64,000 nt of DNA, taken from positions 2,450 through 66,449 of the forward strand of contig CAIWCT010000037.1 in NCBI GenBank assembly GCA_903911225.1. The letters are read 5' to 3'. The notes beneath the pieces are model-generated. The model was not told where the DNA came from, did no database searches, and worked only from the letters and a program-made list of their open reading frames with translations. Made by a program: the position numbers and the translations under genes. This DNA is from an uncultured delta proteobacterium (lineage in GTDB: Bacteria > Desulfobacterota > WTBG01 > CAIYCZ01 > CAIRTM01). Below are positions 13,537 through 63,679 of this stretch, piece after piece (position 1 is the first letter of the stretch; each line of letters begins with the position of its first letter).

Positions 13537-14640
13537 TTGAGCACTGAACAGACATCCGAGATTCAATCTGTGGTTGTTCAGCCTGGAGGCCTGCACCCTA
13601 CGGAGGATCGTCCGTTGATTTCTTTCTGTCTGGTTGCCTATAACCAAGAGCAGTTCATTCGTGAGGCTGTAGAGGGGGCCTTCTCGCAGACCTACTCCCC
13701 CCTGGAGATCATCCTTTCAGATGATTATTCTTCTGACCGCACCTTTGAAATTATGTGGGAAATGGCCGCCGCCTATAGCGGACCTCATAAAATCATTACC
13801 AATAAAAACGAGAAGAATCTGGGGATTGGTGGCCATATTAATCGAGTGGTGCAAATTTCCAGCGGCGAGTTGATCGTCGGCGCGGGCGGTGATGATATTT
13901 CCCTTCCCGAGCGTACAAGCGAGATTTATCAAGCATGGATTGGATCAGGCAAAAAAGCCTTTTCTATCGATTCAGCTTATATGTTGATCAATGAATGTGG
14001 CAATAATCTTGACTTTCTCCCGATAAAAGATTTGCCAAAAGAACAGCAGTTGCTTCATTTTTCAAAAACGCTCGTAAACTATGTCCATGGATGTACCCAT
14101 GCATGGCATAAAAAGGTATTTGATGTGTTCGGCCTATTGCCCGACATTGCCATGGAAGACCTTGTGATTCCACCACGATCCATGCTGTTGGGAAGTGTGG
14201 TGCGCATCAACAAGCCGCTGGTTAAATACAGAACCCATGACAGTAACATTTTCAAGACATCCAAGAAGTTTACAATAAAAGAGGGCCTTGATAGGGAAAT
14301 ATTTGCTTTGAAGGATAGGATAAATGGGGCCATTGATGTTGTCAGGTGCATTAGCGAATACAAGCGCACTGAAACAGACCCTTCGCGCCTTTGCTATTTT
14401 GATACCTGTATTTTAAATATGCAGGTCAGTATCGGGAAATTTGCACTGCGATTGCATATCCTTACTGATTCTCCGGTGATAAGATTGTATGCTCTTGCAA
14501 AATATATTTTTTTATATGGGTTCCAGCGGTATGATGTATTTTTAGTCGTATGCGCTGTGTCAAAAAAGGCATTTATGCTAATTAGTTACAGCAGAAGATT
14601 GTTAAGGGCTTGCCATATACTCCCATGTAAAGGTTCGTAA
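13537..14640 (+). CDS. Glycosyltransferase family 2
   Basis: ISFCLVAYNQEQFIREAVEGAFSQTYSPLEIILSDDYSSDRT (GT-A N-terminal signature with DD motif). GGDDIS. TTG start as listed, so the start is uncertain. Confidence 0.75.
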   Translation: MSTEQTSEIQSVVVQPGGLHPTEDRPLISFCLVAYNQEQFIREAVEGAFSQTYSPLEIILSDDYSSDRTFEIMWEMAAAYSGPHKIITNKNEKNLGIGGHINRVVQISSGELIVGAGGDDISLPERTSEIYQAWIGSGKKAFSIDSAYMLINECGNNLDFLPIKDLPKEQQLLHFSKTLVNYVHGCTHAWHKKVFDVFGLLPDIAMEDLVIPPRSMLLGSVVRINKPLVKYRTHDSNIFKTSKKFTIKEGLDREIFALKDRINGAIDVVRCISEYKRTETDPSRLCYFDTCILNMQVSIGKFALRLHILTDSPVIRLYALAKYIFLYGFQRYDVFLVVCAVSKKAFMLISYSRRLLRACHILPCKGS

Positions 14641-14684
14641 TATTTTCCGTGCCGGAAAGGTGCGATTTGCAACTTGAATTGACC

Positions 14685-15614
14685 ATGAAAATTTCTATCG
14701 TGATACCTTTGTATAACAAAGCTCGGTATATCAAGCGGGCGATCGACTCCGTCTTGGCGCAGACCTATTCAGAGTTCGAGCTGATTGTGATTGATGATGG
14801 CTCGTCCGACGGCAGTGGGGGTATTGTTCGACAGTACGCGGATCAACGTGTGCGGCTGGTTGTACAGCCGAATAGCGGCGAATGTGCCGCGCGCAATCGC
14901 GGCATTGCCGAGTCGCGGGGGAATTGGGTTGCCTTCCTCGACGCGGATGACGAATGGATGCCGAGGTTTCTGGAATGTGCTACTGGTTTTGCAGCAACTA
15001 ATCCTTCCCTAATCCTGGTATTTGTAAATATTTTAAGTTTTGCAGAAAAGAGTCCGTGGCTCGATTGCTCCTTATCGGAGCCGCGTGTGCTTGAAAATTA
15101 CTTTGCTTTTTCAATCCAATATGGCTGCCGTGGGATAACGTCTTCTTCCGTAATAATTCAAAAGCAAATTTTGGAAATCATTGGCGGTTTTCCTATTGGC
15201 ATCCATCGAGGAGGAGATGTCGACACGTGGACTCGTCTAGCGCTAATGGGTGAAGTAGGATTTGTACCGGAAGTACTGGCTGTTTATCACAATGAGGTGG
15301 GTGGTAGCGGCGCATTGTTTCCGAAGCCACCTTTTCCTGAGGGTGTTAAAACATTGCGGCGATTGCGCGAGGAGAACAGCATTTCCTGTCAGTTCGCCAA
15401 GAGCAGCTTGGTTTTCGAAAACCTGCTTCTCCTGCAGTATGCTAAAGAATTGACCGACGATGGCGATTGGGCCAACGCGATGCGAGTTCTCTATAACGAG
15501 TGCCAGATCAGGCATTGCCCAATGAAATATTTTTTCAAGATACAGTGCCGACTGATCTTGAGATGGCTTCTGCTAAAAGGGCGGAGGTCCCATTCGGCCG
15601 ATAGCGAGAGGTAA
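14685..15614 (+). CDS. Glycosyltransferase family 2
   Basis: MKISIVIPLYNKARYIKRAIDSVLAQTYSEFELIVIDDGSSDGS. FLDADDEW (DxD). The ATG at 14685 is preferred over the listed upstream start. Confidence 0.85.
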   Translation: MKISIVIPLYNKARYIKRAIDSVLAQTYSEFELIVIDDGSSDGSGGIVRQYADQRVRLVVQPNSGECAARNRGIAESRGNWVAFLDADDEWMPRFLECATGFAATNPSLILVFVNILSFAEKSPWLDCSLSEPRVLENYFAFSIQYGCRGITSSSVIIQKQILEIIGGFPIGIHRGGDVDTWTRLALMGEVGFVPEVLAVYHNEVGGSGALFPKPPFPEGVKTLRRLREENSISCQFAKSSLVFENLLLLQYAKELTDDGDWANAMRVLYNECQIRHCPMKYFFKIQCRLILRWLLLKGRRSHSADSER

Positions 15615-47488: not shown

Positions 47489-47561
47489 GGGGCTGTAGCT
47501 CAGCTGGGAGAGCGCTTGAATGGCATTCAAGAGGCCGACGGTTCGATCCCGTTCAGCTCCA
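47489..47561 (+). tRNA. tRNA-Ala (anticodon GGC)
   Basis: Cloverleaf read by eye. Acceptor GGGGCTG/CAGCTCC with the G3:U70 alanine identity pair. D-arm GCTCAGCTGGGAGAGC. Anticodon stem CTTGA/TCAAG with loop ATGGCAT. T-arm with TTCGATC. No encoded CCA. Confidence 0.9.
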
Positions 47562-47595
47562 CTTTTTAAGAATCCAGCGACATGCTGGGAAGTAT

Positions 47596-57596: not shown

Positions 57597-57608
57597 GATC
57601 TTGCATAC

Positions 57609-57663
57609 GGTGGGTGAAACCCACCATTGATGGACATGAAAAATTTTGGTGGGTTTCACCCAC
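57609..57663. repeat. REP-like palindromic element (GGTGGGTGAAACCCACC ... GGTGGGTTTCACCCAC), copy 1
   Basis: Two short hairpins separated by about 22 nt. Closely related to 61919-61988. Confidence 0.8.
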
Positions 57664-57694
57664 ACTACAAAACTTGTTCCCAGGGAGACTTGTC

Positions 57695-59500
57695 ATGGCA
57701 GAACCATTTGTAAACCTCAAGCGTTCCAATTACTGCGGAGATCTGCGTAAAAGCGACGTTGGCCGCAATGTGACCATCATGGGCTGGGTGCATAGCCGCC
57801 GCGACCACGGGGGCCTGATTTTTGTCGATCTGCGCGACCGCACAGGCATAGCCCAGATAGCCTTTCACCCCGATGCATGTTCTTCTGCTCTGGATAAGGC
57901 CCATGACCTGCGAAGCGAATTCGTGATCGCGGTCAAAGGCACGGTAGCCGACCGGCCAGAGGGCACGATCAATCCTGACCTTCCCACGGGCGAGATCGAG
58001 GTGCTTGCAAGCGAGCTTATTATTTTAAATGAATCGCAGACCCCGCCGTTTGAAATTTCCGACCGCGCGGAAGCAACCGAGACCCTGCGCCTCAAGTACC
58101 GCTATCTTGATCTGCGGCGGCCCAAAATGCAGCAGATTTTAGCCACGCGACATCGCATGTGCCAGATAATCAGGAATTATTTCAGCGCTCAGAATTTCAT
58201 GGAATTTGAAACGCCCATGCTCACCAAGAGCACGCCCGAGGGGGCCCGCGACTATCTGGTGCCGAGCCGCATCGAGGCGGGCAGCTTTTTTGCCCTGCCC
58301 CAGTCTCCGCAGCTGTTTAAGCAGATACTCATGGTGTCGGGCTTTGACCGCTACTTTCAGATCGTGAAATGCTTTCGCGACGAGGATCTGCGCGCCGACC
58401 GCCAGCCCGAGTTTACGCAGGTTGACCTTGAGATGTCTTTTATCGATGAAGAAGATATTTACAGCCTGCTCGAAGGCCTGATGAAAAATCTGTTTAAGGA
58501 AATTCTCAGCCTCGACGTGGCGACGCCGTTTCCGCGCCTGTCATATCAGGAGGCCATGGACCGCTTCGGCTCCGACAAGCCCGATACGCGCTTCGGCCTT
58601 GAGCTTGTCGATCTTAACCCGGCCCTTAAAAATTCCGGCTTCAAGGTTTTTGCCCAGGCCATTGAAAAAGGCGGCGTGGTGAAGGGCCTCACGGTGAAGG
58701 GTGCTGATTTTTCCCGCAAAGACCTCGATGAGCTTGTTGAGGTTGCAAAAACCTACGGCGCAGGGGGTCTTGTCTGGATAAAAATAAATCCCGATGGCTG
58801 GCAGTCGCCTGCGGCGAAATTTCTCTCCGATGCTGAAAAGGCGGAAATTACGCGCATCATGGGAGCCGAAACAGGCGACCTGCTGGTGATGGTGGGCGAT
58901 GCCTCCTTCACAACGGCCTGCAACGCCATCGGCTACGTGCGGCTGCACCTGATTAAAAAGCTCGGCCTTGCGCCATCGGAAAAATTCAAGTTCACGTGGG
59001 TCAACAAGTTTCCGCTTCTTGAGTACAGCGCCGAAGACAAGCGCTGGGTTGCCATGCACCATCCCTTTACCTCGCCCCTTGAAGAAGACATGGCGCTGCT
59101 GGATACCGAGCCGGGCCGCGTGCGCGCCCGTGCCTATGACCTTGTGATGAACGGCAGTGAAATCGGAGGCGGCTCCATCCGTATCCACCGCCAGGATGTG
59201 CAGTCGAAAATGTTCAGCCTGCTTGGCATTCAGCCCGACGAGGCTGAGGTGAAGTTCGGGTTCCTGCTCGACGCGCTCAAGTTCGGCGCGCCACCCCATG
59301 GCGGGCTTGCCCTGGGGCTCGACCGCATGGTCATGCTCATGACCGACTGCGAATCGATCCGCGACGTAATTGCATTTCCCAAAACGCAGAAGGCAGCCTG
59401 CCTCATGTCGGGTGCGCCGTCGCCGGTAGACAACCGGCAACTTCGCGAGCTACACATCAAAACAAACCTGCCGCAAAAAGAAGCAAAAGAAAAAGAATAA
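57695..59500 (+). CDS. aspS: Aspartate--tRNA ligase
   Basis: RSNYCGDLR...[56 protein letters not shown]. The ATG at 57695 is preferred, because the listed GTG start at 57614 reads through the REP element. Confidence 0.95.
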
Positions 59501-59504
59501 ATAC

Positions 59505-59530
59505 AAGGAGGCCCCGGGGCCTCCTTTTTT
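59505..59530 (+). terminator. Intrinsic terminator of aspS
   Basis: AAGGAGGCCCC/GGGGCCTCCTT perfect palindromic stem followed by TTTT. Confidence 0.85.
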
Positions 59531-59680: not shown

Positions 59681-59710
59681 CCATGTTATATAGATGTCTA
59701 TATAACATGG
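59681..59710. repeat. Perfect 30-bp palindrome (14-bp arms, 2-nt centre)
   Basis: CCATGTTATATAGA tg TCTATATAACATGG. The 11-mer AGATGTCTATA recurs at 59803-59813. Confidence 0.95.
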
Positions 59711-59868
59711 GGTTTTCCCGTAAAATGCAGAATGAGGGATTATAGATTGACAATATTCTTATAATTTGAAATAAGCGCCGTAGGCTGGAGTTCGAAAATT
59801 ACAGATGTCTATAGTAATATATGTTGGCATCCATACGATAAAACCATTGGAGAAAAGAAGCAAAACAA

Positions 59869-60894
59869 ATGGATAGAAAACTATTTCTCGAAAAAATTCT
59901 AAATGAATTTGAAAATTGGTGGACACACGATCCACATAGCTCAAATATTAATTTTTATCAGAACACTATTACGGCTTCTCGATTGGCCTCATTATCGAAT
60001 AAGGAATTTATTGATTTCTTTTATGGTTTCGTAAGTGAAGGTGGGCGAGTACAATCAGGTGGTGACCGAACTAAGAACAAATTTCGAAATACAGTACAAA
60101 ATAACATAGATAGGTTTAGGAAATACGTTTTAAAGCCGTTTCGAGACAATTTTTCTCTTAAAGATTGGTTTTTGCAACTTGAAGAATATCCAGGATTTGG
60201 AGTGGGTATAGCAACGATATTTCTTAATCGGATAAATCATAGGAAATATCCTATAATGAATAATAAAACGTTGAAAGGGCTAAGCAGGCTTGGATACAGA
60301 ATATCTTCTTCAAAAAACTGGACAAATTATAAATTGGTTAAGCAATACCAAGATGATTTACTAAATGATTTTCCAACACTTCAAAACTATTACAAAGCAG
60401 ATGCATTAAATCATTTCCTCGTGGCTGTTTATCAAGGACAAGAGCTAATATCAGATTACTTGCAGATAGACAATTTTGAAAATGAATTGGAGCAACATGA
60501 AATAGAATGCGGTGCTGAAATCGACGAAACAAATAAGGAAGAATTGTATAAAAAATTAATCGAATGTGAAAATAGCAAATCAGAAAAAATCACAATCAAT
60601 GGAAAAGTTTATAAGAGGCATAATTACTTGATGGCTCTAATAAAGAAATATAGGGACCATAAATGCCAATTCTGTTCAACAACCATTCTTAAAGCAAATG
60701 GCGCGTATTATATTGAGGCTTGCCACATTAAGCCAAAAGCTGAAGGTGGCAAGGATAGTTTTGATAATATTCTAATTCTGTGCCCCAATTGTCATAAACT
60801 TTTTGATTATGGTGAGCGGTCTAATGAAAAGAAAAGGAATGCTACTTATTCCATTACTATTAATGAAAAAAAATACAAAGCATCGTTAAAATAA
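59869..60894 (+). CDS. HNH endonuclease with a 250-aa N-terminal domain of unknown function (possible HhH-like segment)
   Basis: C-terminal HNH_2-type motif: CQFCSTT...YIEACHIKPKAEGGKDSFDNILILCPNCHKLFDYG. The N-terminal segment YPGFGVGIATIFLNRI resembles a helix-hairpin-helix. AT-rich. Confidence 0.75.
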   Translation: MDRKLFLEKILNEFENWWTHDPHSSNINFYQNTITASRLASLSNKEFIDFFYGFVSEGGRVQSGGDRTKNKFRNTVQNNIDRFRKYVLKPFRDNFSLKDWFLQLEEYPGFGVGIATIFLNRINHRKYPIMNNKTLKGLSRLGYRISSSKNWTNYKLVKQYQDDLLNDFPTLQNYYKADALNHFLVAVYQGQELISDYLQIDNFENELEQHEIECGAEIDETNKEELYKKLIECENSKSEKITINGKVYKRHNYLMALIKKYRDHKCQFCSTTILKANGAYYIEACHIKPKAEGGKDSFDNILILCPNCHKLFDYGERSNEKKRNATYSITINEKKYKASLK

Positions 60895-60903
60895 TGCGTT
60901 AAA

Positions 60904-60975
60904 TGCCAACAAATATTTGCACCTGACTGGTGTTCCTCTGCCGCTCCTCACCAGCAGGTGAAAAACACGTTAGAT
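60904..60975 (+). other. attC-like recombination site A
   Basis: GCCAAC...CACCTGaCTGGTG...CACCAGcAGGTG...GTTAGAT. An imperfect palindrome with single unpaired bases. Ends in a GTTRRRY core (GTTAGAT, 60969-60975). Confidence 0.6.
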
Positions 60976-60998
60976 GAAAATAAATAGATAAATCTTTA

Positions 60999-61859
60999 TT
61001 GAGGGTTGTTTTGCAGAATAATCAAGCTGGACAAGTTTATATTCTTGTTTCACCGAATTCGGAATACATCAAAATTGGAGGCAGCGACTACCCTCCTCTT
61101 AAACGTATCCGGGAAATCAATACAACTGAACCATATAAAAGCCTTGGTCCATGGGGTTTATCTGATTTCAGGCAAGTTACTGATTGGAGAAAAATTGAAG
61201 CATCTTTACATTACGCTTTCAGAAGCAAACTGATCAAGAATATCGACGGGCAAAAAGAGTTGTTCCATGTCTCAGCCCATGAAGCTTCAGCGAAACTTAA
61301 TCAAATTGATCCATCAGAAATTTTAAAAAAACCAAAAGTTGACCGTATGTTTCAGGATGAGGATTTTACCACGTATATTCTCCAATTATTCAGCTTTACT
61401 GGGTTGATGAATTGGCTTGATATTCAAGGCGCATGGACCTTTGTGCTTTTTCCAGCGACTGAAGGGGGGCGATATTTTACGATCAATATTGGACCTCATG
61501 AAGTCGCATTCAGCACATTGCCGAAAAATAATGAGAAGCCAATACATATGATTTTAGTGGATCGGTTGATATTGGATTTTAAGGGAGTTAAAAATTGGGT
61601 CTACACCCATAACGGGCAAATCAAAGAAGATCACTATAAAAGTGCACTTCCCCGTTCAACTTCTCTAATTTTTGAAGGGACTTTTGAAGATGCTCAAAAT
61701 TTTCTTACTCTTGATGGAGTGAGGCGTGCATTAATAGCATATTGGACGGAAGGATTAATCGGACTAAAAGAAAGAGGTGCTTTAAGCCTCTTTGCCAAGT
61801 TTCACAACTGGAATGCCGTGGCAGAAATTCATTCTCGTTTAATGAAAAATAAGAACTAA
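60999..61859 (+). CDS. T5orf172 / GIY-YIG-like domain protein with a C-terminal domain of unknown function
   Basis: GQVYILVSPNSEYIKIGGSDYPPLKRIREINTTEP...IEASLHYAFRSKLIKNIDGQKELFHV fits the T5orf172 pattern (VYIL, KIG, R..E.N, E..LH..F, E.F). No ATG is available, so the start is TTG and uncertain. Confidence 0.6.
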   Translation: MRVVLQNNQAGQVYILVSPNSEYIKIGGSDYPPLKRIREINTTEPYKSLGPWGLSDFRQVTDWRKIEASLHYAFRSKLIKNIDGQKELFHVSAHEASAKLNQIDPSEILKKPKVDRMFQDEDFTTYILQLFSFTGLMNWLDIQGAWTFVLFPATEGGRYFTINIGPHEVAFSTLPKNNEKPIHMILVDRLILDFKGVKNWVYTHNGQIKEDHYKSALPRSTSLIFEGTFEDAQNFLTLDGVRRALIAYWTEGLIGLKERGALSLFAKFHNWNAVAEIHSRLMKNKN

Positions 61860-61862
61860 ATA

Positions 61863-62033
61863 TCTAACATGCGCATTCACTCTGACCGCCACTCCGCTTC
61901 GCTACGTGGCGGCAGTCAGTAGGGTGGGTGAAACCCACCATTTATGATGTTTCAAAATACCGGTGGGTTTCGCTACGCTGCACCCACCACGGACTGTCGA
62001 CTTCGCCTCCAGCAGGTGACCTTAACGTTAGGG
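61863..62033 (+). other. Compound or disrupted attC-like site B carrying a REP-like insert
   Basis: The 5' part is TCTAAC...ACTCTGACCGCCAC-loop-GTGGCGGCAGTCAGT. Then REP copy 2 (61919-61988). Then an attC 3' half, CCTCCAGCAGGTGACCTTAACGTTAGGG, resembling the 3' half of site A. Confidence 0.5.
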
Positions 62034-62041
62034 TGCATCAG

Positions 62042-62329
62042 ATGAGACTCATAAGCATAGTGAAGACTTCCAGTCTTGTTGGCGCGATACTGATCGGCAT
62101 TCTCACAGCAGCAATCTATTTCGGAGGGCCTAATCCGCCGACGCCAATGGTGAGCACCAACAATCCATTCAAAGCCGTCGATTTTTCGGATTTGCCCGCG
62201 CTACAACGCTTCACCGCAAAGGATGGCGCTCAGCTCGCCTACCGCTATTACAGCCCCAAAGGGAAAAAGGGGGGTCAAATCTTTAACTTGACAAATTACG
62301 CTTTCAACAACCATGAAATATCAAGATAA
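62042..62329 (+). pseudogene. Truncated N-terminal fragment of an alpha/beta-hydrolase-like protein
   Basis: MRLISIVKTSSLVGAILIGILTAAIYF (anchor), then FTAKDGAQLAYRYYSP as in hydrolase N-termini. It then stops after about 95 aa, before any nucleophile-elbow motif. The ORF-track start at 61928 lies within REP/attC sequence. Confidence 0.4.
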
Positions 62330-63098
62330 AGATTTGACCCCAATGATACCGCCAATGAAAAATAAATACGCACATTTCGCCATCGGATATGTCCTGTTTG
62401 GGCTTGTGATGCAGTTTTTTGTACCAGGCTGTGTTACCAGTCCTATACGGAGAGAAATACATTCTATGCCAAAATATAGGCCGGAGCAGTATCCTTTGAC
62501 GGTCGAAGGCTCATATCGTGGCACGTTTAATTCCAGCGGAAGCGAGTACATGCACTTCTACTTCCCACATTTCCCATGGCCGGCTCGATATGGTCAGGAG
62601 ATGCACATATTCTTTCCTGTCATGCCGGGCAATAGCCCCATTGTTATAAACAAGCGAGAGGATCTTTGGATAAACGAGTATCGAGATAAAAATACGATTC
62701 CTGTGCATTACATCTATAAAGGGGAGAAATACGGTAAAAGCCTTGAAGTGCCAAACCCTCTAAAGAATAATATCCCAACCAGCCGGGCAAAGCTTTTCAT
62801 TACAACCACAAATAATCTGCCAGAGATTCGACCTTCAGAAGGTACCCCCTTTTATGTTTACCTTAACGCAACAAAGGATGGGCCAGGATCCATATTCAGG
62901 GTTGCACAAGTGCTGCCCGGAACTAAACCTGAATGGAGCCCTGCCAGCATTCTGAATGATAAGCCTTACCAGTGGGAATGGTATAGCCCTTGGTATTATG
63001 CATGGTACCTTTATTCCGTGCCCCTGGACATAATCACCTATCCAGCGCAGTTTGCAATCTCATTGTGGGGATATTGGCTTCTAAAAGATGTTAAGTGA
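62313..63098 (+). CDS. Hypothetical protein, possible lipoprotein with a C-terminal TM helix
   Basis: FAIGYVLFGLVMQFFVPGC is lipobox-like. Trp/Tyr-rich C-terminus. The true start is probably the ATG at 62343 or 62355, since 62313 lies inside a 15-bp-arm hairpin. Confidence 0.45.
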   Translation: MKYQDKDLTPMIPPMKNKYAHFAIGYVLFGLVMQFFVPGCVTSPIRREIHSMPKYRPEQYPLTVEGSYRGTFNSSGSEYMHFYFPHFPWPARYGQEMHIFFPVMPGNSPIVINKREDLWINEYRDKNTIPVHYIYKGEKYGKSLEVPNPLKNNIPTSRAKLFITTTNNLPEIRPSEGTPFYVYLNATKDGPGSIFRVAQVLPGTKPEWSPASILNDKPYQWEWYSPWYYAWYLYSVPLDIITYPAQFAISLWGYWLLKDVK

Positions 63099-63106
63099 GA
63101 TGAACT

Positions 63107-63164
63107 GGCTAACAAAACCACTTCAGCCGACCGCTTTCAGCGGCGGCTGACCTTTTCGTTAGCT
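63107..63164 (+). other. attC-like recombination site C (58 bp, the most canonical)
   Basis: GGCTAAC-aaaaccact-TCAGCCGaCCGCT-ttc-AGCGGcGGCTGA-ccttttc-GTTAGCT. The outer cores are reverse complements. The inner stems carry single extrahelical bases. Confidence 0.7.
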
Positions 63165-63202: not shown

Positions 63203-63610
63203 ATGAAAATTTTTTCCAATACCTCGATTTACTGGGGGCGCTCATTGTTTCTGGGATTACTTGCTACGGTAGGTCTCGGTGTGTGTTCACCGTTGTGGAT
63301 GCTCGCTCAGATGGGTGGCCCAATACCTTTTACATCTTTTTGGTTGCTCATTACTTCCCCCTTTTTTTTGCTTATGCTGTTTCTATCTAAAGCGCGTGAC
63401 GTGCTTGCTGGATTCGTGTGCGGACTTTTGTTTTCCTCACCGGTGGCTGTATTCTGTTGGCTCTTTTCGACCATTGATCCAAATGTGGAGAAATATTATA
63501 GAACAGAGATTAGGCGGGACGGGGTTGCTACACTTTTGATCTCGGTAATTGTGATGTTGTTTGTGGTATTTCTAAGACATGGTGGCCAAGCTGAACGTCG
63601 CAACAAATAA
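63203..63610 (+). CDS. Hypothetical small membrane protein (4 TM helices)
   Basis: 135 aa, hydrophobic helices. Bounded by attC-like sites C and D. Confidence 0.45.
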   Translation: MKIFSNTSIYWGRSLFLGLLATVGLGVCSPLWMLAQMGGPIPFTSFWLLITSPFFLLMLFLSKARDVLAGFVCGLLFSSPVAVFCWLFSTIDPNVEKYYRTEIRRDGVATLLISVIVMLFVVFLRHGGQAERRNK

Positions 63611-63679
63611 AGCTAACGAGGAGCTGCCCTGGATATGGTTCCGCTGCTCTCCACCACGCCAGTGACCTTTGCGTTAGTG
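63611..63679 (+). other. attC-like recombination site D
   Basis: AGCTAACG...CCAGTGACCTTTGCGTTAGTG. Starts immediately after the stop codon. Its 3' end shares the GAC-CTTT-n-CGTTAG consensus with sites B and C. Confidence 0.55.

Follow-up and report, generated by a model that had tools for sequence, protein, structure and literature searches.

A candidate restriction enzyme for modified DNA and a T5orf172 nuclease of plausible defence function in neighbouring cassettes of an integrase-less integron array

The stretch of DNA considered here, a window of 64,000 nucleotides, comes from an uncultured delta proteobacterium of the Desulfobacterota (GenBank assembly GCA_903911225.1, contig CAIWCT010000037.1, positions 2,450 to 66,449 of the forward strand) and carries near its end an array of at least four integron cassettes. 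The first two hold one open reading frame (ORF) each: ORF1 (59869-60894, plus strand; cassette 1), which encodes a protein of 341 residues, and ORF2 (60999-61859, plus strand; cassette 2), which encodes one of 286 residues from a TTG start, or of 282 residues from the TTG at 61011 where gene callers place it. ORF1 is a candidate for, and very probably is, a restriction enzyme that reads modified (phage) DNA by means of a disabled glycosylase domain; for ORF2 a defence role is plausible. Taken as one joint explanation, an array whose first cassette specifies a type IV restriction endonuclease and whose second specifies a likely anti-mobile-element nuclease seems to us somewhat better than an even proposition.

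A first-pass annotation, made from the sequence alone, had picked out these genes as two nuclease cassettes and thus as candidate compact defence modules. Both reading frames and the motifs that it quoted, CHIKP...DNILILCPNCHKLFDYG and GFGVGIATIFLNRI, are present, and the Pfam families HNH_2 and HNH (ORF1) and T5orf172 (ORF2) match above their cut-offs. Homologues number 172 for ORF1, about 100 of the 120 listed being full length (335-359 residues), and 587 for ORF2, of about 280 residues and nearly all full length, with 60-88% identity among the 120 best listed. So many full-length homologues, with both halves conserved in each family, imply that the two are real genes under selection and not chance reading frames. 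No T5orf172 gene neighbours an ORF1 homologue at any other locus examined, and HNH is not within the 25 most frequent Pfam families among ORF2 neighbours; the two genes are independent.

A glycosylase-like domain joined to an HNH nuclease

The C-terminal domain of ORF1 (60604..60891, plus strand; residues 246-341) is an McrA-type HNH nuclease. Residues 266-315 match the Pfam families HNH_2 at 35.9 bits and HNH at 35.4, where the cut-offs lie near 21, and the PADLOC model mREase_IV (5e-10) and the NCBIfam model for phosphorothioate (PT-DNA) restriction endonucleases (5.9e-9) match as well. The closest sequence relatives of the HNH domain in the PDB are EcoKMcrA (6ghc, 3e-8), TagI (6ghs) and ScoMcrA (5zmm), which are also the top Foldseek matches of the AlphaFold2 (AF2) model of ORF1 (mean predicted local distance difference test score, pLDDT, 90.7). 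Across 52 sequences C266, C269, H286, N300 and H309 never vary, and C305 and C308 hardly do; C266, C269, C305 and C308 are the zinc cysteines, and H286, N300 and H309 make up the beta-beta-alpha-Me site. The HNH motif, with its zinc cysteines, is intact.

The likeness to these restriction enzymes takes in the helices that precede the HNH motif (E 3e-8 to 6e-5 over 6GHC, 6GHS and 5ZMM) and the overall layout, an N-terminal reader (in ORF1 a predicted one) followed by a C-terminal HNH domain. Outside the HNH region, however, ORF1 has no significant similarity to EcoKMcrA, TagI or ScoMcrA. The N-terminal domain of EcoKMcrA reads 5-methylcytosine (5mC) and 5-hydroxymethylcytosine (5hmC), and the SBD and SRA domains of ScoMcrA read phosphorothioate and 5mC; these readers are unrelated to the N-terminal domain of ORF1, which has the HhH-GPD fold.

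This domain (59869..60513, plus strand; residues 1-215) resembles the Ogg-like glycosylases of the HhH-GPD family, and the segment that the first-pass annotation had likened to a helix-hairpin-helix (HhH) is its hairpin (GFGVGIATIFLNR, residues 109-121). Foldseek, a search that the annotation itself had proposed, gives Thermotoga Ogg2 (3n0u) as the best glycosylase match, with a template modelling (TM) score of 0.50 over 206 columns and a probability of 0.97; MjOgg, MutY, MagIII and AlkA also match, and the target-normalised TM scores of 3n0u, 3knt, MutY and MagIII reach 0.51. In a profile hidden Markov model search the best PDB sequence match is another Ogg2 entry, the 8-oxoguanine glycosylase 9o01 (E 0.048), and the Pfam family Ogg-HhH gives a sub-threshold match at the corresponding place (E 0.12). 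The fold (Foldseek E 0.1), profile and Pfam statistics, individually weak, agree in pointing to a glycosylase fold.

The residues on which glycosylase catalysis normally depends appear to have been lost. In the Ogg2 profile alignment an invariant glycine, G113, stands at the position of the catalytic lysine and an invariant asparagine, N131, at that of the catalytic aspartate. The best-scoring Ogg2 entry in the PDB itself has asparagine at the latter position, where other entries of that enzyme have aspartate. An hhalign comparison with E. coli Nth, using an approximate sequence, gave a weak match (E 0.27) in a register shifted by two residues and was not adopted; in either register residues 127-134 of ORF1 contain no acidic residue.

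What, then, might such a domain do at the head of a nuclease? The strongest evidence, so far as sequence can answer the question, comes from domain architecture. A profile of the N-terminal domain finds 214 representative proteins, and those other than the HNH fusions of about 340 residues are mostly 500-1260 residues long. Of 60 long relatives scanned, 52 carry the McrB AAA_5 GTPase, 16 of them with an EVE domain as well and two with McrB_N, and the alignment consensus of the long relatives shows the McrB Walker motifs. The ORF1 domain is homologous to these N-terminal modules of McrB GTPases at E-values of 1e-50 to 1e-70, with W17, F54, G58, G59, Q62, R67, W100, N131, K133 and D178 invariant in HNH and McrB architectures alike. 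In E. coli McrB the N-terminal position is held by a DNA-recognition domain. Since the ORF1-type domain replaces or accompanies known modified-base readers on McrB, it is most simply taken as a modified-DNA reader, and we predict that in ORF1, too, it reads modified bases. Compared with McrBC, ORF1 lacks a GTPase and an McrC partner and has its cleavage domain, the HNH, built in. Relatives of intermediate length were considered as possible carriers of other effectors; they looked like truncated McrB or EVE fusions and revealed no new nucleases.

From the folds, the conserved motifs, the architectures and the genomic contexts described below, we infer that the N-terminal domain would scan DNA, flip bases out and retain non-canonical ones. 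The bases concerned may be modified guanines such as 7-deazaguanines, by analogy with the Ogg-like END and the Dag proteins discussed below. Binding would then license the McrA-type HNH domain to cut modified foreign DNA. Unmodified host DNA would be spared, so that no methyltransferase or immunity gene would be required. No second ORF or methyltransferase lies inside cassette 1 or cassette 2, which bears out the earlier view that each gene has to act alone.

We favour a reading of ORF1 as an HNH-type member, or a close analogue, of a class that unites END nucleases with type IV enzymes, its predicted sensor being N-terminal. According to the available portion of a 2025 report (PMC12191111), to which our statements on END proteins here and below are limited, an END nuclease is a defence encoded by one gene, which joins an inactivated EndoIII/Ogg sensor of hypermodified bases to a PLD or a NucS-like PD-DExK nuclease. 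Such fusions restrict hypermodified phages, one Ogg-like member restricted phages whose guanines are modified, and the sensor is also reported in fusion with an McrB GTPase. END-PaCF1 and END-Mag thus share with ORF1 the use of a single protein, a glycosylase-fold sensor (in ORF1 a predicted one) without the canonical catalytic residues, a nuclease, the absence of a methyltransferase, and a type of sensor found also on McrB GTPases. There are differences, however. The effectors listed in that portion of the report are PLD, NucS-like PD-DExK and the McrB GTPase, with no HNH fusion among them, whereas the effector of ORF1 is an McrA-type HNH; the sensor is C-terminal in END-PaCF1 and N-terminal in ORF1; ORF1, unlike the END nucleases as there described, is borne on a cassette. 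The likeness drawn here is one of fold and architecture.

The first-pass annotation had held both domain combinations to be uncharacterised. This holds only in part: the principle of a sensor joined to a nuclease was published in 2025 for END nucleases (PMC12191111), and HhH glycosylases carried by integrons (Dag) are established defences (10.1101/2025.10.29.685425). An HNH fusion is not listed in the available text of the END report, and the C-terminal domain of ORF2 has no detectable relative. What is new in cassette 1 is the HNH effector, its carriage on a cassette and its occurrence in environmental phyla. If ORF1 acts as predicted, an HNH effector would be added to the restriction enzymes that read hypermodified DNA by means of a disabled repair glycosylase, and this design would be shown to move about in integron cassettes beyond Vibrio, among Bacteroidota and further environmental bacteria. 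For the detection of modified phage genomes, enzymes of the predicted kind would be useful reagents.

The alternative for ORF1 that has most to be said for it, although we think it unlikely, is that the N-terminal domain is an active, non-canonical glycosylase of the Dag type and that the HNH domain converts the resulting abasic sites, or nearby DNA, into breaks, making ORF1 a two-step enzyme. Many active HhH glycosylases directed against 7-deazaguanine phages (Dag) are found in Vibrio integrons (Getz et al., 10.1101/2025.10.29.685425; again as far as the available text goes), and these integron-borne proteins, Dag1-Dag19, are active defence enzymes with the same superfamily fold and the same cassette habitat as ORF1. 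The essential residues of Dag1 are K118, D184 and W188, reportedly with a Lys-Asp catalytic pair in which D184, with W188 stacking, serves instead of the canonical aspartate. In ORF1, K133 and D178 do not vary and K176 hardly does, and H182 and F183 follow D178 by four to five residues, so that D178 with H182/F183 possibly corresponds to D184 with W188. The hairpin of ORF1, however, has no lysine but the invariant G113, and asparagine replaces the canonical aspartate; the same domain heads McrB GTPases beside EVE and McrB_N readers; and END sensors of this sort are described as inactivated (PMC12191111). Dag proteins are presented in the available text as glycosylases, with no mention of a fused nuclease, whereas ORF1 carries the HNH.

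Several points nevertheless weigh against our own account of ORF1 as a reader without catalysis. Each of the three links to glycosylases is weak when taken alone, the register of the catalytic site depends on one profile alignment, and the spacing of the invariant D178 and H182/F183 does resemble that of Dag1 D184/W188; to judge from these residues, catalysis by the N-terminal domain is possible. In addition, we found no promoter-like site upstream of ORF1, and with no Pc promoter in an array of this kind the expression of its cassettes is only putative.

That ORF1 is instead a housekeeping repair protein, a glycosylase of Ogg or EndoIII type accompanied by an accessory nuclease, is highly improbable: the fold does match the repair glycosylases Ogg2, MutY, MagIII and AlkA, but the canonical catalytic residues are missing, the gene lies in AT-rich cassette DNA within a GC-richer genome, the family is patchy and located in islands, and the nearest HNH relatives are restriction enzymes.

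Genomic context points to defence as well. All four of the ORF1 homologue contexts that we examined are defence or mobile islands, containing respectively Mrr and an integrase; AAA_23 and AAA_13 proteins; a deaminase, a ResIII-PIN-MTase (methyltransferase) set and OLD-TOPRIM; and IS21 and DruA. In none of these four other contexts is a methyltransferase gene immediately beside the ORF1 homologue; two of them (L124 and L125) have methyltransferase-domain genes a few kilobases downstream, that of L124 within the separate ResIII-PIN-MTase set. A conserved upstream partner was also considered, in the form of a 209-210-residue ORF found at two loci, and was rejected, since neither ORF is related to the other or to cassette 3. 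No full-length copy of ORF1 occurs in the IMG/VR viral contigs. With its HNH relatives, the architectures of its N-terminal domain and its island contexts, cassette 1 is well supported as the compact defence module that it had been proposed to be, and the type IV-like layout suspected for it is backed by the kinship of the HNH domain to EcoKMcrA, TagI and ScoMcrA and of the N-terminal domain to reader-associated McrB modules.

The association of ORF1 with cassettes is not confined to this genome. In 10 of 23 metagenome loci an R'' box (ATGCCAAC or AGCCTAAC) stands about 10 nt past the stop codon of the ORF1 homologue and is followed by attC palindromes, and its recurrence implies that the ORF1 family is a recurrent integron cassette. 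Among homologues with 57-81% protein identity the roughly 10 nt that follow the stop codon, together with R'' (TAAAGCACGAAATGCCAAC or ...AGCCTAAC), are conserved, and the rest of the attC site differs. The 3' junction of the cassette seems to travel with the gene.

The T5orf172 protein of the second cassette

ORF2 begins with a nuclease domain of the GIY-YIG superfamily (61020..61322, plus strand; residues 8-108). The Pfam family T5orf172 matches residues 12-102 at 35.8 bits (cut-off 20; 1.2e-8), covering positions 2-99 of the 101 in the profile, and MUG113 matches the same residues above its curated cut-off. In structure comparisons the domain matches Slx1 (Foldseek probability 0.92), and some 50 viral T5orf172 models in BFVD align to it with root-mean-square deviations (rmsd) of about 2-3 Å over about 100 residues. 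Y14, K25-I-G27-G28 and R36 are invariant among 50 sequences and E87 is nearly so. We take Y14, R36 and E87 to be residues of the GIY-YIG catalytic core. Judged by this conservation, the nuclease is apparently intact.

The remainder of the protein (61323..61856, plus strand; residues 109-286) forms an alpha/beta domain to which no fold family can be assigned. It is as strongly conserved as the nuclease domain, with invariant motifs that include QGAWT, GGR(Y/W)FT(I/L)NIGxHEVA and GVRRAxxAYW, and it is found only in fusion with T5orf172, in a fixed architecture. The AF2 model (pLDDT 91.8, predicted TM score, pTM, 0.86) shows one compact two-domain unit in which the C-terminal domain packs on the nuclease. 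This domain has no Pfam match at E<=10 and no PDB sequence match in a profile search, and a Foldseek search of BFVD with ORF2 matched nothing beyond the nuclease. Weak and inconsistent Foldseek matches to ARPC2, YbjN and a type III chaperone (TM <=0.29, high rmsd) were treated as noise, and the charge and isoelectric point of the domains were uninformative. The division made at first pass, a T5orf172/GIY-YIG-like domain and about 180 residues free of recognisable motifs, has therefore survived, the C-terminal domain having no detectable relative in these searches.

We think it likeliest that ORF2 is a self-contained anti-mobile-element nuclease whose C-terminal domain would provide target recognition or control, a proposal with much less support than that for cassette 1. 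The evidence for defence is circumstantial: its place in a cassette here, its absence from viral contigs, its patchy spread and a few defence-type neighbours. Among 185,579 species genomes the family occurs at 73 loci, all from bacterial genome assemblies and scattered over at least 15 phyla or classes, among them Spirochaetota, Bacteroidota, Chloroflexota, the Candidate Phyla Radiation (CPR), Desulfobacterota, Planctomycetota, Nitrospirota, Neisseriaceae and Bradyrhizobium; the 2.9 million viral contigs of IMG/VR contain no relative. A minority of the neighbouring genes belong to defence or mobile functions (PDC-S01, AriA-like, a type I methyltransferase, RhuM, YhcG, NADAR and mad2), and the homologue in Treponema primitia has Abi_alpha, NADAR and a type ISP restriction-modification enzyme around it.

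Other observations count against a defence function for ORF2. The 130 neighbours at 33 ORF2 loci are mostly housekeeping or metabolic genes with no recurring partner, and about 90% of the genomic copies lie outside cassettes. The PADLOC match of ORF2, to PDC-S57, covers the nuclease only (residues 8-111, profile positions 3-101 of 212), and the C-terminal domain has no assignable function. ORF2 was considered as a regular cassette gene and that idea was dropped: a hairpin heuristic for attC sites, which recovers two of the four sites of the present array (about 50% sensitivity) and also gives background matches, found none at 60 downstream sites, and by eye about 4 of 49 loci have attC-like sites.

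The characterised T5orf172 proteins that a literature search brought up are phage homing endonucleases or derivatives of them that combine the nuclease with a DNA-binding domain (PMC10448857, PMC8263062, PMC8096241), the models being the ICP1 homing endonucleases, Odn and PLE CapR. ORF2 could accordingly be an endonuclease of the homing type, whether selfish or domesticated, or a regulator that binds DNA and descends from such an enzyme, merely captured as a cassette, and its largely housekeeping neighbours and its high conservation across phyla, which fits recent horizontal spread, are consistent with this. We regard it as doubtful all the same, although it is the alternative for ORF2 with the most in its favour. 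The family is cellular and has no relative among the viral contigs; its loci are intergenic and stand-alone, and not in introns, inteins or phage genomes; and a conserved catalytic core argues against a pure repressor. ORF2 shares with ICP1 endonucleases, Odn, CapR and the PADLOC candidates PDC-S57 and PD-Lambda-1 a common nuclease domain and a modular second domain, but its nuclease comes first, and its second domain, without a relative in PDB, BFVD or Pfam, differs from the known examples.

A quite unlikely possibility is that ORF2 is a non-specific nuclease of the abortive-infection type, held off by its C-terminal domain until a phage cue releases it, whereupon it would kill the cell or degrade DNA of every kind. 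The packing of the two domains into a single unit, the lack of an immunity partner and the presence of Abi_alpha and NADAR beside the T. primitia homologue would suit such a role. No sensor-like fold is recognised in ORF2, however, and the toxicity is purely hypothetical.

A bolder combination, in which the C-terminal domain of ORF2 is a new fold family that gives a single-protein defence nuclease, horizontally spread over many bacterial phyla, its sensor or specificity module and, in parallel, ORF1 is a two-step glycosylase-HNH enzyme, is one that we entertain with considerable reserve. Whatever its role, the ORF2 family is a compact and widespread two-domain nuclease of over 550 members to which no function has been assigned, and as such a cheap target for functional screens.

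The cassette array and its surroundings

Each of the two genes is an integron cassette in its own right, with a single ORF, in an array without an adjacent integrase gene, located after aspS. The genes upstream are yajC-secDF, moeA and aspS, with a strong terminator after aspS at 59505-59526, and the GC content falls from 56% over moeA-aspS to 33-46% in the cassettes. Cassette 1 begins at 59824, within the R'-type core G|TTGGCAT (59823..59830, plus strand); this left boundary and the R'' box ATGCCAAC at 60903-60910 are perfectly complementary, and over 15 nt the complementarity still amounts to 93%.

Four attC sites, all on the plus strand, delimit the cassettes. The attC-like site that the first-pass annotation saw between the two genes is a genuine attC of 73 nt (attC1, 60903-60975), with R'' ATGCCAAC, L'' GCACCTGaCTGGTG, L' CACCAGCAGGTG and R' GTTAGAT; it is an imperfect palindrome with one extra (bulged) base and forms a hairpin of -11 to -12 kcal/mol. 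Cassette 2 is followed by attC2 (61862-62033), a site of 172 nt that runs from R'' ATCTAAC to the L'-R' segment CCAGCAGGTGACCTTAACGTTAGGG and has its 3' half in common with attC1; its minimum-energy fold pairs R'' with R', and its R'' is complementary to GTTAGAT, with which cassette 2 starts. The third site, attC3 (63107-63164), is a textbook 58-nt attC, GGCTAAC ... GTTAGCT, that folds at -18 to -19 kcal/mol with R'' and R' paired and one bulged base. The R'' of attC4 (63611-63679; AGCTAAC ... GTTAGTG) is complementary to GTTAGCT, the opening bases of cassette 4, and the bottom strand folds at -11.9 kcal/mol, again with R'' and R' paired.

All four sites thus open with an RYYYAAC-like box, close with a GTTRRRY-like box and fold as imperfect palindromes, and a shared L'-R' motif is present three times where chance would give 0.27 copies. 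The most diagnostic feature of the array is the complementarity of each R'' to its own cassette: the R'' boxes of cassettes 1 to 4 match the reverse complement of the opening bases of their cassettes at 8/8, 7/8, 5/8 and 7/8 positions, respectively, as expected if cassettes are excised as circles. An Rfam search of the region gave no match.

Metagenomic contigs that carry the ORF1 protein with matching gene order show that the array runs about 1 kb past the end of the window, beyond which lie housekeeping genes on the opposite strand and no integrase. Phage_integrase has no match in the called genes 10 kb to each side of ORF1 on related contigs or in ten other ORFs of the window, and none of the other window ORFs scanned is a recombinase. 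An integrase elsewhere in the window was considered and rejected, the lone minus-strand ORFs being a GDSL lipase, a DUF3108 protein and a flavin reductase. With no intI adjacent and aspS directly upstream, the array is of the CALIN type (cluster of attC sites lacking an integron integrase). Integrase-less arrays of uncultured bacteria can thus hold defence candidates.

The other cassettes encode proteins of 261 residues (62313-63098), 135 residues (63203-63610; hydrophobic and probably a membrane protein) and 151 + 152 residues (13865-14775 on the related contig L002). After the array comes a 443-residue protein (L002 15404-16735) with a hydrophobic N-terminus and, by eye, a possible signal peptide. 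Pfam and NCBIfam gave no significant match for any of these proteins (best E 0.05).

The 3' end of aspS (about 50 bp) and its own terminator are repeated twice downstream of the array (59448-59530 in the window; 14866-14945 and 14985-15075 on L002, past the end of the window). These copies place the array within an island of about 5.4 kb bracketed by direct repeats, which resembles an att-flanked integrated element, yet one without an integrase.

A palindrome that resembles repetitive extragenic palindromic (REP) elements, GGGTGGGTGAAACCCACC-N~20-GGTGGGTTTCACCCACCC, is present in three copies within about 7 kb around the array, at 57606-57668, at 61919-61975, nested inside attC2, and at L002 14802-14861, about 700 bp past the end of the window; the rest of the 64 kb contains none. 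An Ssn-like link between ORF2 and flanking hairpin repeats was considered and rejected, since the palindrome of attC2 recurs only at the locus in this genome and the 73 other ORF2 loci have no repeated hairpins. The mechanically called start of aspS, a GTG at 57614, falls inside the first copy, whereas gene callers start the gene at 57695 (601 residues).

Directly upstream of the first cassette boundary lies a non-coding stretch of 280 bp that contains a perfect 14+14 nt palindrome, CCATGTTATATAGA / TCTATATAACATGG (59681-59710), and a direct repeat, AGATGTCTATA, at 59692-59702 and 59803-59813. The palindrome and repeat might be what is left of an attI-like site or of one to which a regulator binds.

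Farther away, and unrelated to the cassettes, a region of lower GC content at about 23000-47000 carries genes of the polysaccharide-modification type (carbamoyltransferase, DegT aminotransferase, MBOAT and GDSL esterases), and a gene for tRNA-Ala lies at 47489-47562.

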